From NCBI RefSeq assembly GCF_009931435.1, contig NZ_CP043414.1: a DNA stretch of 64,000 nucleotides; one strand, written 5' to 3'. Positions 7,921 to 18,897 of the stretch are shown piece by piece; position 1 is the stretch's first letter, and each line of letters opens with the position of its first letter. Both the position numbers and the translations under genes were made by a program. The notes under the pieces were generated by a model that was not told where the DNA came from, searched no databases, and was given only the letters and a program-made list of their open reading frames with translations. Source of the stretch: Escherichia coli. GTDB lineage: Bacteria; Pseudomonadota; Gammaproteobacteria; Enterobacterales; Enterobacteriaceae.

Positions 7921-10155
<2,235 letters not shown>

Positions 10156-10428: not shown

Positions 10429-11322
<894 letters not shown>

Positions 11323-11701: not shown

Positions 11702-13261
11702 TTACTTAATATCTTTCACGCGCATACCGTTGATCTGTTCATCCGTGATGGTATTACCCGCTTTAAAGTAATCAACCACCGCGTGATAAACGTAATAACC
11801 GCCCGTCGTATTGCGCGCTTTACCCTCGGTAAACGCGGTAAAACCATCTCCACCATCAGCAAGGAAACTCTGAGTGGCAATGTGGTAAACCGTCGCATCT
11901 TCAATCGGTTTGCCATTCAGAGTCAGCGAGATAACCCGCTGACCAACCGGCTTGCTGCTGTCGTACTTCATTTCCAGGCCTTTCGATACCTGTAAAACGC
12001 CATTACTCAAACTTGCGCCGTGTTCCATCAAACCGCGTAATTGTTTACCCGTGAGTTCCATCGTCACCAGTTCGTTGGGGAACGGGAAGGTACTGATGAC
12101 GCCACCCATCGTAATTGCACCCGCCGGGATCTCATTGCGAATCCCACCAGAGTTGGTTAACGCCAACTGGGTATTTTTACCCGCCGCTACCAGTAAAGCG
12201 TCCGCCGCCAGGTTCCCCAGGGATGCCGATTCACCATAGGCACGTTTTAATTCAACTGGCGATTGCGCCACCGTTTGCTGCACGACTTCATCCAGCTTTT
12301 TATTCCAACTATCAATCACCTGTTTTGTTTGCGCATCGGGCTTCCACTCGTCGGCGTAAAGGGTTTTAAGCTCGAAGTTTTTCACCGTAAAAGTGTGCGG
12401 TTTCTCTTTGAAGTCGAGAACCAGTTTACCCACATCAATCCCTCCGCTGTCAGTGGAAAGGATGAGCGTATTGCCGACTTTAATCGGTTCCGGCGTACCC
12501 ACATGTGCATGTCCGGTGATCAAAATATCCAGCCCTTTCACCTGACTTGCCGTCTGTATATCTTTATCCAGCGCGCGACGCACATCTGTGCCTCCCATAC
12601 TGGACTGGCGGGCCGGAACACCTTCGTGAATCAGGGCGACGGTCAAATCAACCTTGCCTTTGAGTTCATCGATATAACGTTGTAACCACTTAATTTCATC
12701 ACGCGCTTCAATACCCACTCGCGTGGCAGCGGATACCGTGTCATTAAAGGCAAATACTCCGTGCAAACCAATCACACCAATTTTCACGCCGTCTTTTTCA
12801 ATAATGGTATATGGCTTATCCCAGAATGATTTACTGCTGTTCTGATAAAAAATATTACCCTGCACAATCGGGAATTTTGCCTGACTCAACTGTAATAGGG
12901 TGTTGTCCCAGCCGTGATCAAATTCATGATTCCCTATAGTGACCGCATCGAACGGCATGGTATTCATAATATCGATAATCGCCTTGCCTTTAGTCAGGCT
13001 GCTGATATACGGCCCGGTAAAATAGTCACCCGCATCAAAAAACCAGGTCGCTTTGTTTTTAGCTTTTTCTTGTTTAACAAGCGTAGTGATATTTGCCCAG
13101 CCGCCAATATCCCGTTTACCGTCAGCAATCCACGGCACTTTATAAGGCTCTACATGTGCATGGAGGTCGTTGGTATAAATAATGGTGACATCTTTGGCGC
13201 AGGCCCAAAACGGCAGTGTTAATGCGATACCCGCAGCAAGCATTTTAATTTTCATAAACAA
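11702..13261 (-). CDS. Secreted bifunctional metallophosphatase/5'-nucleotidase family protein (paralog A)
   Basis: 519 aa; N-terminal signal peptide; calcineurin-like motifs DLHAHV, GDYFTG, GNHEFD, HEG, GHAHVG; C-terminal 5'-nucleotidase-like domain (UshA/CpdB architecture). Confidence 0.8.
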
Positions 13262-13313
13262 TCCCTTCCAGTGAGATAAAGGATTGCTACATTACGTTCT
13301 GAAAGGCTTTTTT

Positions 13314-13331
13314 ATGTGAGAATACTCACAT
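13314..13331. promoter_or_regulatory. Perfect palindrome ATGTGAG-AATA-CTCACAT in divergent intergenic region
   Basis: 18-bp dyad seen between the divergently transcribed nucleotidase A and Cys-rich protein genes; candidate operator. Confidence 0.3.
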
Positions 13332-13387
13332 CCAGAGGCGATAACTGTAGGACAAAATCAACGACCTTATGAAATCGTTGGTGATAT

Positions 13388-14515
13388 ATGTCAAATCTGT
13401 TTGCGATTAATGTCTGTAAAACGTTCGGTTGTCGAAATTTGGGATTGGCCTCATCGGAAGATTACAGTTGGCCAGACTATAAACTGGGTTTTCCGGCACT
13501 GCACTGCCAGGCATGCGGAAGTTACCCCCCTTTGTTTGATGAACAACAATTTCGTGACTGGTTGTCAGTTCACATGACTGCGTGTGCCATAGAAACAGGG
13601 CATTTTTGTCCATCATGCTATTGTAAAGAAAAGATTTTTTATGGCCACAACCCGCAGGGAACACAACGCGTTCAATGCCGTTCATGCAAAAAAGTCTGGA
13701 CTCCGAAACAGCAGCCAGCAAGAGAAATTACGTATCCCCAGTCCATTGAAACCGTTCAACTGTTCATGCCCTTTCAAGGAGCCAGCGCAGTACAAAAGCT
13801 CTATGTTTTAGTCAGTCTTGACGCCACTCGTGGCAACATCCTTCATCTCTCCACGAATTATACGCAACATCAGACAGGAGACAGTCTGCGGTACAGTTAC
13901 AGAGGCAATACAGAACCAACTGAGCACCATAGCGATATTGTGCAGAGGGTAGATATGCGTGAAGCGCAATTCTTGCGCCGGAGCCAGTTCGATGAAATTC
14001 AGTATGGCAGTGCTGTGCTCAAGCGCAACGGCAAGGGAGCCATACTACGCCCGGTTATCACGGCACACGGGCATTTCAGAATACTGAAAATCCGCTTTCC
14101 ACATGTCAAAACGCATATCATTTCACACGAATGTTTTCTGAGAGGCGCAATTATTACAGCCTGGGCAGATCAGTTCCGCCAACAACAAGGCGAACTTTGG
14201 TTCGTAGAAGAAGAAATCAGCGACCGTAACGCTGATATTCCCTGGCATTTTCAGGGAACGACATACCATGGTTGGTGGCAAAATCAGTGGCAACGCTGGG
14301 GGCAGGGGAATAACAGCAAGATGGTCTGCCTGCTCACAGGAGTCTCCTTAGAAAGGGGCGCAAATGTTTCTCTGGCAACCAGTCGTTGCTTTATCACATG
14401 GCTGACAGACCAACACGACTTTACCCAAAGCGCGTTATTATCCGCAGGTCGCGTAACGAAAATGCTGACCTCACTGGCGTTAAAATACAATGAATCGCTC
14501 ACTCCATCTTGTTAG
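13388..14515 (+). CDS. Cys-rich (putative zinc-ribbon) protein of unknown function
   Basis: 375-aa ORF; N-terminal clusters C-x2-C...C-x2-C (CQACGS, CPSCYC, CRSCKK) resembling zinc-ribbon modules; no confident family assignment. Confidence 0.55.
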   Translation: MSNLFAINVCKTFGCRNLGLASSEDYSWPDYKLGFPALHCQACGSYPPLFDEQQFRDWLSVHMTACAIETGHFCPSCYCKEKIFYGHNPQGTQRVQCRSCKKVWTPKQQPAREITYPQSIETVQLFMPFQGASAVQKLYVLVSLDATRGNILHLSTNYTQHQTGDSLRYSYRGNTEPTEHHSDIVQRVDMREAQFLRRSQFDEIQYGSAVLKRNGKGAILRPVITAHGHFRILKIRFPHVKTHIISHECFLRGAIITAWADQFRQQQGELWFVEEEISDRNADIPWHFQGTTYHGWWQNQWQRWGQGNNSKMVCLLTGVSLERGANVSLATSRCFITWLTDQHDFTQSALLSAGRVTKMLTSLALKYNESLTPSC

Positions 14516-14744
14516 TCAATACACTCGACAAACGACCATAAATTAATGGGATCACTATTTCTCATTTAATTAAATATATGAATGTATGACTGAAAAATAT
14601 AATCACAGTCAATGTTTAATTAATAACATTATTTGTTACTAAGATCACATAATACTTTCCTGACCTATGCTCTTATAAAAATAAGACACGGTGTTCCTTT
14701 TATTTAAATAATTCAACCAATGTAACAACCCCTATCAAGGAGGG

Positions 14745-16298
14745 ATGATGAGAACTGTATTTACGACTTTATCAGTCATATTCAGCGTGATGTTTTCTCA
14801 CAGTATACTAGCTCAGGACGTTACTATTTATTATACGAATGATATTCACGCACATGTCAATCCGGCAAAAATTCCCGCTGTTGATAAGAACAGACTTGTA
14901 GGTGGTATGGCTAATATTGCAGGCATCGTTAATGAAGCGAAGAAAAAAAACAAAGATGTCTTTTTCTTTGATGCAGGCGACTATTTTACCGGTCCGTATA
15001 TCAGTACCCTGACCAAAGGTGAAGCTATTATTGATATCATGAACACCATGCCCTTTGATGCGGTGTCCGTTGGTAATCACGAGTTCGATCACGGCGTGCC
15101 CAATATGGTATCTCAGTTATCAAAAGCAAAATTCCCCATTCTGCTGGGAAATATTTACTACACCGATACAAATAGACCAGTTTGGGATCATCCGTGGACC
15201 ATTATCGAAAAAGATGGTTTAAAGATTGGTGTGATTGGATTGCATGGTGCATTCGCTTTCTATGATACAGTCGCGGCAAAAGCACGTGAAGGCGTAGAAG
15301 CCAGAGACGAAATTAAATATTTAAATAAAGCACTTGCAGAATTAAAAGGTAAAGTCGACATTACCGTTTTGCTAATTCACGAAGGTGTTCCGGCGCGTCA
15401 ATCAAGCTTTGGTAGTAAAGATGTGGAGCGGCTACTACAGGCAGATATTGAGACAGCTAAAAAAGTGAATGGTGTTGATGTCTTAATTACCGGTCACGCA
15501 CATGTCGGAACACCGCAACCAATAAAAGTTAATAACACATTAATTGTATCTACCGATGCATACGGCACCGACATCGGAAAACTTGTGCTTGATTACAATC
15601 CGAAAACAAAGAAAATTGATAGTTATAATGGTGAGTTAATCACCATCTTTGCAGATCAATTTAAACCTGACACCATCGTTCAAAATACTATCGATAAATG
15701 GAGCGTAAAGCTTAACAAAATCACACAGGAAGTTGTCGGCCATTCTCCCGTAGTTTTAACACGTGAGTATGGCAGTTCTTCTTCTACCGGTAACCTTATT
15801 CTGGATGCAATGATGGAAAAAGCACCTGATGCCATTGCCGGATTTCAAAATAGCGGTGGGATGCGAGCTGATTTTCCTAAAGGTGATATCACACTGGGAG
15901 ATGTTATTAGCACATTCCCCTTTAATAATGACCTCATCGAGATGGATTTGACGGGCCGCGATCTCAAATCATTGATGACGCATGCAACCAATCTAACTAA
16001 CGGTGTGTTACAGGTTTCAAAAAGCGTTGCGGTTGTCTATGACAGCAAAAAACCACTCAACCAGCGGTTAATCTCTTTCACCATTAACGGCAAACCCGTG
16101 GAAGATAATCAAACATATCGTATTGCCACGCACTCCTTTTGTGCCAGTGGTGGTGACGGTTTTGAAGCATTTTTGAATGGAAAAAATGTGAAGACGATAC
16201 CGGGAACAACCTCGGCGGAATCTATCATCGATTATTTCAAAAATCATAAACCTGTCACCCCAGACTTAACTAAACGAGTCATGGACGTCGCCAAATAA
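14745..16298 (+). CDS. Secreted metallophosphatase/5'-nucleotidase family protein (paralog B)
   Basis: 517 aa; signal peptide; same metallophosphatase motif set as paralog A but most divergent of the three. Confidence 0.8.
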   Translation: MMRTVFTTLSVIFSVMFSHSILAQDVTIYYTNDIHAHVNPAKIPAVDKNRLVGGMANIAGIVNEAKKKNKDVFFFDAGDYFTGPYISTLTKGEAIIDIMNTMPFDAVSVGNHEFDHGVPNMVSQLSKAKFPILLGNIYYTDTNRPVWDHPWTIIEKDGLKIGVIGLHGAFAFYDTVAAKAREGVEARDEIKYLNKALAELKGKVDITVLLIHEGVPARQSSFGSKDVERLLQADIETAKKVNGVDVLITGHAHVGTPQPIKVNNTLIVSTDAYGTDIGKLVLDYNPKTKKIDSYNGELITIFADQFKPDTIVQNTIDKWSVKLNKITQEVVGHSPVVLTREYGSSSSTGNLILDAMMEKAPDAIAGFQNSGGMRADFPKGDITLGDVISTFPFNNDLIEMDLTGRDLKSLMTHATNLTNGVLQVSKSVAVVYDSKKPLNQRLISFTINGKPVEDNQTYRIATHSFCASGGDGFEAFLNGKNVKTIPGTTSAESIIDYFKNHKPVTPDLTKRVMDVAK

Positions 16299-16332
16299 AA
16301 TATCATTTATCAGTCTATTTATTTAACAAGGA

Positions 16333-17958
16333 ATGCGAATGAAAACAGTGCAGCGTACTTTACTTGCCGCAACATTGCTGACTATTTTTTCGGTTTCAGT
16401 CATGGCGCAGGATGTCACGATTATTTATACAAATGATCTTCACGCTCATGTGGATTCTTATAAAGTGCCGTATATCGCAGACGGAAAACGCGACATTGGC
16501 GGCTTTGCCAATATATCTACTTTAGTAAAACAAGAGAAAGCGAAAAATAAAGCCACCTTTTATTTTGATGCTGGAGACTATTTCACCGGCCCTTATATCA
16601 GCAGTCTGACAAAGGGCGAAGCAATAATTGACATTATGAATACCATGCCTTTTGACGCAGTATCAATCGGTAATCATGAGTTTGACCATGGCTGGGATAA
16701 TGCCCTGCGACAATTAAGCAAAGCGAATTTTCCTGTTTTATTGGGCAATGTTTATCATAAAGAGAGTGAGAAACCCTTCTGGAACAAGCCCTACACCATC
16801 CTGGAAAAAGATGGCATCAAGATTGGTATTATTGGGCTACACGGCGTATTTGCATTTAATGATACGGTCTCGGAGCTCTCTCTCCAGGGACTCGATAATG
16901 ACAATAATAACCGCTTTGATAAATCTTCCGAGACCCTTAAGAATCAGGGGATTGAAGCACGTGATGAAGTGAAGTATTTGCAACATTATATCGACGAGTT
17001 ACGTGATAAGGTTGACCTCACTGTGGCGCTGGTTCATGAAGGCGTTCCGGCGCGTCAGTCCAGCATTGGCAATACAGATGTTAGACGCGCTCTTGATAAA
17101 GATATTCAAACCGCTAGCAAGGTGAAAGGATTGGATATTCTGATTACCGGGCATGCCCACGTCGGAACGCCAGAACCAATCAAAGTCGGCAACACCTTAA
17201 TCCTTTCAACTGATAGTGGCGGTATCGATATTGGTAAATTAGTCCTTGATGTCAACCCTACAGCTCGTACCCATAAAATGAAGAGCTTTGAGCTGAAAAC
17301 AGTTTATGCCGATGAATGGATACCCGATCCAACGACACAAAAAGTTATCAATGGCTGGAATAAAAAACTGGCGGATATTGTACGCCAACCAGTGGGTGAA
17401 TCATCGATTGCATTAACTCGCGCCTATGGTGAGTCATCGCAACTAGGCAACCTGTTTACCGATGCAATGCTTGTCGCTGCTCCGACTGCACAGATTGCAT
17501 TGATAAACTCCGGCAGCTTACGTGCGGATATAAATGCAGGCACGATTACCTTTGGCGACATTACCAGTACATTCCCCTTCAAGAATGAACTTACTGAAAT
17601 GGATCTCAGCGGTAAGGATCTGCGTAACCTACTGGAACACGGGGCATCGCTTACCAATGGCATCCTGCAAATGTCAAAAGGCGCAGAAATGCGCTATACC
17701 CCGCAGAAACCAGTAGGTCAGCGCATAGTATCTTTTAAAATTAATAGTGAAGAGATCGTTGATACGAATATTTACCATGTTGCAACAACGACTTTCCTTG
17801 CACTGGGGGGCGATGGTTTTCTGGCATTCAAAGAAGGGAAAAATGTTCAGGTCCGCGCCGGAAATAACATGTCCGATGTCGTGATCGATTATTTGAAGAA
17901 AGGCCACAAGATTACGCCTGCACAGGTAAATGAAATGCGGGTGGACGTTAGCAAATAA
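16333..17958 (+). CDS. Secreted metallophosphatase/5'-nucleotidase family protein (paralog C)
   Basis: 541 aa; closely related to paralog A over most of its length, with a 20-aa insertion (ELSLQGLDNDNNNRFDKSSE...). Confidence 0.8.
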   Translation: MRMKTVQRTLLAATLLTIFSVSVMAQDVTIIYTNDLHAHVDSYKVPYIADGKRDIGGFANISTLVKQEKAKNKATFYFDAGDYFTGPYISSLTKGEAIIDIMNTMPFDAVSIGNHEFDHGWDNALRQLSKANFPVLLGNVYHKESEKPFWNKPYTILEKDGIKIGIIGLHGVFAFNDTVSELSLQGLDNDNNNRFDKSSETLKNQGIEARDEVKYLQHYIDELRDKVDLTVALVHEGVPARQSSIGNTDVRRALDKDIQTASKVKGLDILITGHAHVGTPEPIKVGNTLILSTDSGGIDIGKLVLDVNPTARTHKMKSFELKTVYADEWIPDPTTQKVINGWNKKLADIVRQPVGESSIALTRAYGESSQLGNLFTDAMLVAAPTAQIALINSGSLRADINAGTITFGDITSTFPFKNELTEMDLSGKDLRNLLEHGASLTNGILQMSKGAEMRYTPQKPVGQRIVSFKINSEEIVDTNIYHVATTTFLALGGDGFLAFKEGKNVQVRAGNNMSDVVIDYLKKGHKITPAQVNEMRVDVSK

Positions 17959-17970
17959 TAAAAAAATTAT

Positions 17971-18007
17971 AATGCCATTCATTCACTGAATGGCATTATT
18001 TTTCTCT
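17971..18007 (+). terminator. Hairpin plus T-run between nucleotidase C and the tsx-like gene
   Basis: AATGCCATTCA-TTCAC-TGAATGGCATT followed by ATTTTTCTC. Confidence 0.45.
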
Positions 18008-18036
18008 AAATCAACAATAGATAATGAGATATATTT

Positions 18037-18897
18037 ATGTGTATAAAAAAGCACGGGATAGCTTTATCGATTCTATTAATACCTTGCATTGGAAACGCTC
18101 AGGAAATTAAAAGTGAGGAAGGCTGGTTACATCAAAGCTTGAATGTCATTGGTCGCACAGACTCTCGCTTTGGCCCAAGGCTGACTAACGACCTCTACCC
18201 TGAATATACTGTAGCAGGAAGAAAAGACTGGTTTGATTTTTATGGTTATGTTGATCTACCAAAATTCTTTGGCGTCGGCAGTCACTATGATGTTGGGATC
18301 TGGGATGAGGGCTCACCACTATTTACGGAAATAGAACCTCGGTTTTCCATTGACAAATTGACCGGATTAAATCTTGCGTTCGGCCCTTTTAAAGAATGGT
18401 TCATTGCAAACAACTATGTCTATGATATGGGTGACAACCAGTCATCCCGGCAAAGTACATGGTATATGGGGCTTGGTACAGATATCGACACGGGTCTACC
18501 AATTAAGCTTTCTGCCAATATATACGCCAAGTATCAGTGGCAAAACTATGGTGCCGCTAATGAAAATGAATGGGACGGATATCGATTCAAAATAAAATAT
18601 AGCATTCCTCTTACCCATTTATTCGGAGGGCGATTGGTATACAATAGTTTTACTAACTTTGATTTTGGCTCCGATCTTGCGGACAAATCACACAATAATA
18701 AACGAACCAGTAATGCTATTGCTTCAAGCCATATCCTTTCCCTGCTATATGAACACTGGAAATTTGCATTTACACTACGTTATTTTCACAACGGTGGACA
18801 ATGGAATGCTGGGGAGAAAGTTAACTTCGGAGATGGTCCATTTGAATTAAAAAACACAGGATGGGGAACCTATACTACTATTGGTTATCAATTTTAA
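18037..18897 (+). CDS. Tsx-family nucleoside-specific outer-membrane channel paralog
   Basis: 286 aa; signal peptide; long collinear similarity to E. coli Tsx ([72 protein letters not shown]-terminal GY-F). Confidence 0.85.

Follow-up and report, generated by a model that had tools for sequence, protein, structure and literature searches.

In the window analysed here, a stretch of 64,000 nucleotides from the chromosome of Escherichia coli, an accessory island is flanked by katG and metF at one end and by metL, metB, and metJ at the other. The island lies between metF and metL and is composed of the genes for nucleotidase A, a hypothetical protein, nucleotidase B, nucleotidase C, and a Tsx-family channel (Table 1). 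Nucleotidase C is 541 amino acids long when counted from the first ATG, and in the NCBI annotation the UTI89 orthologue starts two codons downstream, at the equivalent of position 16339 in the window. The Tsx-like gene directly adjoined the nucleotidase carrying the loop described below at every locus that we examined, and the minimal module among these loci consisted of two genes, nucleotidase C and the Tsx-like channel. Gene C was present in 658 of the 5,426 complete E. coli genomes, including those of UTI89 and 536, as one copy per genome that was chromosomal in all carriers. E. coli strains such as UTI89, 536, and CFT073, which are extraintestinal pathogenic strains, keep three or four nucleotidase paralogues.

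Table 1. Positions in the window of the genes, the insertion, and the arms of the inverted repeat.
Feature	Position	Strand	Description	Evidence
katG	7921-10140	minus		
metF	10429-11319	minus		
Nucleotidase A	11702-13261	minus	Loop-less paralogue; orthologue of E. coli CFT073 c4898 (PDB 3IVD/3IVE)	ORF list, alignments, structure match
Hypothetical protein	13388-14515		375 aa	
Nucleotidase B	14745-16298	plus	Loop-less paralogue	ORF list, alignments
Nucleotidase C	16333-17958	plus	Periplasmic metallophosphatase/5'-nucleotidase paralogue	ORF list, Pfam, RefSeq annotation of the UTI89 orthologue, AlphaFold2
Left arm of the 9-bp inverted repeat	16866-16874		GGTCTCGGA; third base of T178, V179, S180, first two bases of E181	
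60-bp insertion	16873-16932	plus	ELSLQGLDNDNNNRFDKSSE; E181-E200	Best placement against loop-less relatives
Right arm of the 9-bp inverted repeat	16927-16935		TCCGAGACC, exact reverse complement of the left arm; codons S199-E200-T201	
Tsx-family nucleoside channel gene	18037-18897	plus	Immediately downstream of nucleotidase C	NCBIfam PRK15106, E = 6e-148

Nucleotidase C contains the Pfam domains Metallophos (PF00149, E = 5.6e-11) and 5_nucleotid_C (PF02872, E = 5.3e-36), both with scores above the gathering scores, and the two domains are common to A, B, and C. The motifs of the dimetal site (N-D-x-H, G-D, G-N-H-E, H-E-G, and G-H-x-H) were all found in C. The residues D35, H37, D82, N114, H115, H235, H274, and H276, which by analogy with UshA and CD73 are presumably the metal ligands, were invariant in an alignment of 78 sequences. 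In the NCBIfam search, none of A, B, and C reached an equivalog cut-off; for example, C scored 153.7 bits with the UshA model against a cut-off of 600. The AlphaFold2 model of C, which was built on a 78-row alignment, showed a mean pLDDT of 84.8 and a pTM of 0.83, and a Foldseek comparison of this model with 3IVD gave an E value of 6e-84, TM-scores of 0.89/0.96, and an rmsd of 2.2 Å. The entries 3IVD and 3IVE describe the orthologue of A, c4898 of E. coli, as a “putative 5'-nucleotidase” complexed with uridine or cytidine. This protein, the nearest relative of C with a solved structure, is approximately 66% identical to C, adopts the same two-domain fold, and belongs to the same island. A literature search on c4898 returned nothing relevant. 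Human CD73 (e.g., PDB 4H2I and 6S7F) and E. coli UshA (1USH and 1HP1) share with C an architecture of an N-terminal dimetal metallophosphatase domain and a C-terminal nucleotide-binding domain, although they are only 20–25% identical to C; the TM-score between the C model and closed CD73 was 0.75–0.77. Nucleotidase C is a member of the 5'-nucleotidase/UshA/CD73 superfamily by its domains, motifs, and two-domain fold.

We compared C with A and B at the site between the conserved segments F-N-D-T-[VI]-S and G-I-E-A-R-D-E. At this site, C has 25 residues (ELSLQGLDNDNNNRFDKSSETLKNQ), whereas A and B have five (AATRV and AKARE, respectively), and the turn AATRV of 3IVD faces the 25 residues of C across a clean 20-residue gap in the phmmer alignment. 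The net gain of C relative to A and B in the protein and DNA alignments is 20 codons, corresponding to 60 bp in frame. The first-pass annotation had described the difference as a discrete in-frame indel of 60 bp rather than gradual divergence, and these lengths bear it out. In the best placement against the loop-less relatives, the insertion spans E181 to E200. The boundaries are uncertain by a few codons, as divergence in the 15 nt following the gap prevents an exact placement. P0016, which is the nearest of these relatives, reads ...DTVS-APMRQ-GIEARDE, and with this placement TLKNQ of C is homologous to APMRQ. The insertion was present in all 658 E. coli carriers as a single unbroken alignment.

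One conceivable source of the 60 bp, which is compatible with the single ancient insertion favoured below, is a tandem duplication of the next 20 codons ([AT]LKNQGIEARDEVKYLQHY[IL]) followed by divergence of the upstream copy. The loop and the following 20 residues share the pattern L..QG[LI][DE]......[RK][FY] in an exact 20-residue register, CAGGG recurs 60 nt apart, and the in-register BLOSUM62 score exceeded those of shuffled sequences in six of seven orthologues (p = 0.009–0.025). However, the Citrobacter orthologue gave a p value of 0.11, the DNA identity at the 60-nt offset was only 18–23 of 60 positions, and the p values are to be read with the pattern having been noticed before testing and six registers or directions having been tried. 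The in-register test gave p values of approximately 0.02–0.15 for a duplication of the upstream flanking 20 codons. Moreover, unconstrained local alignments between the loop and the remainder of each orthologue were not significant (p = 0.34–0.79). We regard a tandem duplication as possible but somewhat improbable. A copy of the loop from elsewhere in the protein was also considered and was rejected on the same local alignments.

The distribution of the loop was determined in the 78-sequence alignment. The site has 25 residues in 12 of the 78 homologues and exactly five in the other 66, which include all outgroups. The loop was found in all homologues that are 81–99% identical to C and in none with an identity of 75% or less. 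Its carriers are E. coli, an E. albertii-type contig, Citrobacter, Enterobacter, and at least one unassigned enterobacterial contig, and its consensus is ELS[IL]QGLDN[DN]x[NS]NRFDKS[AS][AE][AST]LKNQ. When the loop columns were excluded and a neighbour-joining tree was built, the 12 loop-bearing sequences were monophyletic, their sister was loop-less, and no loop-less member was placed among them. One loop-bearing clade with a loop-less sister indicates one insertion event rather than multiple deletions. The gain in the lineage of C, as the first-pass annotation had it, agrees with both the site lengths and the tree.

The reverse polarity, with a loop that was already present in the ancestor of all the paralogues and was later deleted from A, B, and other lineages, is very unlikely. 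The site is length-variable in the wider superfamily, and CD73 and UshA have several residues more than five in an approximate alignment, in which the CD73 sequence agrees with 15 published residue numbers; at the insertion site, their loops have fewer residues than the loop of C and bear no sequence relationship to it. Against this, the 66 five-residue homologues are 55–75% identical and include those of Vibrio and Providencia, and the loss of the loop outside a single terminal clade with a loop-less sister needs many independent, identical 60-bp deletions. The first-pass annotation had taken the presence of the loop in the orthologues of A as the sign that the loop was ancestral and the inverted repeat a coincidence. 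As a rule, the loop was not found there, and the coincidental nature of the repeat follows by another route, namely the comparison of the arms among orthologues. The assembly GCA_001520995.1 contains an A/C mosaic, which may represent either a real gene conversion or a chimera of the assembly.

We calculated the substitutions in the loop between genera. The loop showed pS values of 0.5–0.9 and pN values of 0.0–0.2, and the pooled pN/pS of the loop was 0.126, compared with 0.093 in the remainder of the gene. The amino acids were kept while the synonymous sites diverged, which indicates a constraint on the peptide and not on the DNA or RNA. This pattern of substitutions indicates that the loop is maintained by purifying selection on the protein.

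The 60 bp had been reported to be bracketed by a perfect 9-bp inverted repeat. The sequence of the repeat and the coordinates of its left arm were confirmed, and the right arm lies at the position given in Table 1 and not at 16926–16934. The arms are separated by 52 nt, and the pairing is not extendable at either end. The description as bracketed needs a qualification: the right arm is located at the 3' end of the insert, and nearly all of the left arm falls within the conserved codons of T178-V179-S180, which pre-date the insertion. At these codons, the loop-less paralogues have ACG GTA TCC (A) and ACA GTC GCG (B). Within the window and under liberal tolerances, only 0.23% of the positions would have a 60-nt segment between the arms of a perfect inverted repeat of at least 9 bp, and 0.84% between those of a repeat of at least 8 bp. 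The window holds 67 perfect 9-mer inverted-repeat seeds (spacers of 3–100 nt) against 24 ± 8 in mononucleotide shuffles, and gene C alone contains three independent perfect inverted repeats of at least 9 bp, i.e., two in addition to the one reported. The repeat at 16866/16927 was picked out post hoc. In isolation, the bracketing is modestly more than expected by chance, and it could be set aside as a coincidence only with the comparative data.

The arms were then compared among the alleles and orthologues. E. coli has two allele classes of gene C, one of 97 genomes at an identity of at least 99% and one of 561 genomes at 95–99%. The 70-mer identical to that of the window occurs only in 97 of the 658 carriers, and the allele in the window is the minority one. 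In all four alleles read from the majority class of 561 genomes (UTI89, 25DN, 536, and MS10860), the right arm has GCG in place of GAG. The arms of UTI89 are TGTCTCGGA (left) and TCCGCGACC (right); 25DN and 536 retain the left arm intact with TCCGCGACC as the right arm, and the right arm of MS10860 is TCCGCGCCC. The orthologues read outside E. coli were those of the E. albertii-type contig, Citrobacter enshiensis, Enterobacter chuandaensis, E. asburiae, and the unassigned contig; the last of these is only 81% identical and still bears the loop. Their codons at the position of the left arm are ACA ATT TCA GAG, ACT GTT TCA GAA, or ACG ATT TCC GTT, and in Enterobacter ACG ATT TCA followed by GAG (E. 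chuandaensis) or GAA (E. asburiae). The codons at the position of the right arm are GCG GCC AGT, GCC GCC GCC, GCT GCG GCC, or GGC GCT GCT. Neither complementarity between the arms nor compensatory change was found in these five loop-bearing orthologues.

At the middle codon of the right arm, all sequences read have GCN (Ala), with the sole exception of the allele in the window, which has GAG. GCN occurs both in the allele of the UTI89 type and in each of the five orthologues read outside E. coli, so that GAG is derived by parsimony. Two substitutions complete the pairing; one is non-synonymous (Ala to Glu), and the other is at an unlinked, synonymous, polymorphic site. The arms are complementary in the allele of the window alone and GAG is derived, which indicates that the repeat was assembled by recent point substitutions long after the insertion. 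In the examination of the orthologues for the 60-bp segment, which the first-pass annotation had proposed, the segment was present throughout the C clade, and the inverted repeat was not conserved with it.

We also considered whether the repeat could be a hairpin of recent origin with a function in the mRNA or DNA of this E. coli allele, such as an RNase site, a translational pause, or a recombination hotspot. The minimum-free-energy fold pairs the two arms, and the repeat is intact in 97 sequenced genomes. The stability of the hairpin, however, was within the range of dinucleotide shuffles both as RNA (−18.0 kcal/mol, z = −1.26) and as DNA (−6.5 kcal/mol, z = −0.29), and an Rfam scan of positions 16300–17500 gave no family at E ≤1. 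The nature of the two completing substitutions, of which one changes the protein and the other is polymorphic, and the two other equally good inverted repeats in gene C also count against a functional hairpin. Furthermore, ribosomes translating the open reading frame would unwind such a stem of 9 bp with its 52-nt loop. A functional hairpin is, on this evidence, highly improbable. A nested hairpin or inverted duplication of the upstream sequence was also tried: the segment 16800–16834 forms imperfect pairs with the insert (74–83% complementary), but the pairs are not nested and cannot be produced by one inverted duplication or template switch, and we treated them as chance.

The first-pass annotation had suggested searching the genome for other copies of the bracketed sequence. 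With up to 3 mismatches allowed, the 60-mer matched the window only at its own position, and the 70-mer was found at one place in each of the 658 carriers and nowhere in the other 4,768 E. coli genomes (E-value limit of 10, word size of 11). No direct repeat that could represent a target-site duplication was found outside the arms (...TGATAC/CTTAAG...), and none was listed at the boundaries. The origin first proposed for the 60 bp was a mobile or small palindromic insertion, such as a REP or a miniature transposable element, or an excision footprint, with the arms as its termini and in frame by chance. This origin is extremely unlikely in spite of the perfect 9-bp repeat near the indel boundaries and the rarity of such bracketing (approximately 0.2% of positions), because the arms are absent from the loop carriers read outside E. 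coli and interrupted in the majority-class alleles read, GAG is derived, the left arm lies inside ancestral T-V-S codons common to the loop-less paralogues, the segment is single-copy with no target duplication beside the arms, the hairpin is no more stable than shuffled sequences, and the interior of the insert is conserved as protein and not as DNA. The REP/BIME, ERIC, and miniature transposable elements of enterobacteria and transposon excision footprints are likewise short segments with inverted termini, and here such termini occur in one allele only; unlike these elements, the segment in C is single-copy, intragenic, and conserved as protein, with unconserved termini, no target-site duplication, and an unstable stem. 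As judged from the alleles and orthologues compared, the inverted repeat had no role in the origin of the insertion and has no detectable structural role in DNA or RNA. The false lead of a mobile element, a footprint, or a structured RNA at the site is thereby removed, and the case is a warning that later point mutations can produce a perfect short inverted repeat at the site of an indel.

The explanation that we consider very probable is a single ancient insertion, a loop constrained as protein, and a coincidental inverted repeat. A single in-frame insertion of 60 bp took place in the ancestor shared by the C-type nucleotidases and converted the five-residue turn between F-N-D-T-[VI]-S and the strand/helix of G-I-E-A-R-D-E to a 25-residue loop. 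The loop has since been kept by purifying selection on the protein, and the 9-bp inverted repeat, as the comparison shows, is a side effect of point substitutions that came later in a single E. coli allele.

We examined the position of the loop in the AlphaFold2 model. Residues 179–204 are modelled as a low-confidence coil without secondary structure, with pLDDT values below 50 in a region covered by only 12 loop-bearing alignment rows; the low values may reflect the shallow alignment rather than true disorder. The segment lies in the N-terminal domain between the helix 172–178 and the strand 207–209 and helix 212–226. The new surface loop that the first-pass annotation had predicted is consistent with this placement between conserved elements of the metallophosphatase domain, while the conformation of the loop is modelled at low confidence. 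In the alignment with CD73 (approximately 24% identity, in a variable region), the insertion site falls between Leu184 and Ser185. In co-crystals of CD73, Ser185 and Asn186 form an N-terminal-lobe pocket in the interdomain cleft, which is contacted by substituents on the base moiety of the inhibitors (PMC8403083; PMC13077603). The insertion site of C is probably located on the rim of the substrate cleft.

From the sequence comparison, we infer that the loop would most likely make C different from A and B in substrate access, base specificity, or domain closure. Such a change would represent a sub-functionalisation of C within a periplasmic nucleotide-scavenging module composed of the nucleotidases and the Tsx-like channel. 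A more specific proposal is that the Asn/Asp-rich loop is a functional module, either a lid on the cleft that sets the specificity or a metal-binding or docking element that couples C to the Tsx-like channel; we consider this proposal unlikely. If it were true, the substrate range or the localisation of C would be distinct from those of A and B. A Pfam search with the loop peptide gave no match. The segment DNDxNNRFD was also tried as an EF-hand-type Ca2+ loop. In the 12-residue EF-hand loop (PS00018), positions 1, 3, 5, and 9 provide oxygen ligands, position 8 is aliphatic, and position 12 is Glu or Asp. By eye, positions 1 (D), 3 (D/N), 5 (N/S), and 9 (D/S) fit the pattern and position 4 is variable as expected, but position 8 is Phe and position 12 is Ser, Ala, or Gly, so that the bidentate acidic ligand is missing and the candidate was rejected.

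The insertion in C is ordinary paralogue divergence, that is, a lineage-specific loop insertion in the 5'-nucleotidase superfamily. Lineage-specific loop indels that separate enzyme paralogues are a general phenomenon, and the loop of C has the same features: it is discrete, in frame, placed in a length-variable loop of the fold, fixed in one paralogue clade, constrained thereafter, and probably near the cleft. Compared with such indels in general, C shows nothing unusual. The loop, apparently on the rim of the cleft, offers a concrete target for mutagenesis. It also serves as a marker for one clade of uncharacterised accessory periplasmic nucleotidases that travel with a Tsx-like channel, and the family with this channel occurs in E. 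coli strains such as UTI89, 536, and CFT073 and in some Citrobacter and Enterobacter.

The module formed by the nucleotidases, the Tsx-like nucleoside channel and a hypothetical protein of about 375 aa occupied different chromosomal sites in different genera, as seen from the window and the compared loci L002, L004, L005, L006 and L008. The metL-metF interval contained the module in E. coli and in Citrobacter enshiensis. In Enterobacter, its neighbour was an arylsulfotransferase gene. In the E. albertii-type contigs, the module contained four nucleotidases and adjoined a DAHP synthase gene, and genes for ChaC-family proteins and two-component regulators were nearby. A minimal pair of the C-type nucleotidase and Tsx-like genes was found in L005, adjoining a gene that encodes methylenetetrahydrofolate dehydrogenase/cyclohydrolase (FolD-type) domains. 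At every locus examined, the Tsx-like gene directly adjoined a C-type gene bearing the loop, the in-frame 20-codon insertion of gene C. The genus-dependent location and the constant adjacency of these two genes suggest that this scavenging module is horizontally mobile and has a conserved C+Tsx pair at its core. The coordinates of the features are summarized in the table.

Coordinates of the module and of features in and around its nucleotidase genes
Feature	Location	Strand	Length	Remark
Module	window 11702-18897
Paralogue A	window 11702-13261	minus		c4898 orthologue
Cys-rich hypothetical protein	window 13388-14515	+	375 aa	divergent from nucleotidase A
Start of gene C ORF (ATG AGA ATG)	window 16333-16341
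Perfect inverted repeat, gene C	window 17123-17132 / 17199-17208		10 bp	gene offsets 791/867
Perfect inverted repeat, gene C	window 17627-17635 / 17710-17718		9 bp	gene offsets 1295/1378
P0015 gene	L009 3398-5011			counterpart of window 11702-13261

The gene encoding P0015, from the E. coli draft assembly GCA_001520995.1, occupied the paralogue A site adjoining metF and was a clean A/C mosaic. A C-type tract of approximately 400 bp (alignment columns about 317-710), in which all 163 successive sites distinguishing A from C carried the C allele, included the 60-bp loop segment and was flanked by A-type sequence. This mosaic reflects either gene conversion from C to A or a chimera of the draft assembly. 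If the mosaic is real, the loop is tolerated by the A backbone.

Besides the repeat bracketing the loop, gene C contained two further perfect inverted repeats with spacers of less than 100 nt, and no indel was associated with either. These repeats show that chance alone yields perfect inverted repeats of this kind in gene C. The true start of gene C is probably 16339, because the second ATG was assigned as the start of the UTI89 orthologue (539 aa) by NCBI's pipeline.

Structures of c4898 with bound uridine and cytidine are available (PDB 3IVD/3IVE). A full-text search for the name c4898 returned nothing relevant, and the island enzymes thus appear to be structurally known and functionally uncharacterised.

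Unannotated genes for 374-383-aa proteins with no Pfam family on record occurred in the loci of the E. albertii-type contigs, Citrobacter and Enterobacter, matching the gene for the Cys-rich protein in position and approximately in size. The sole similarity found for the 375-aa protein was a weak one to the N-terminal zinc ribbon of the IS1 transposase/InsA (NCBIfam E = 4e-4, far under the cut-off; Pfam E = 0.68). This protein could act as a regulator, or it could be what is left of a domesticated transposase.
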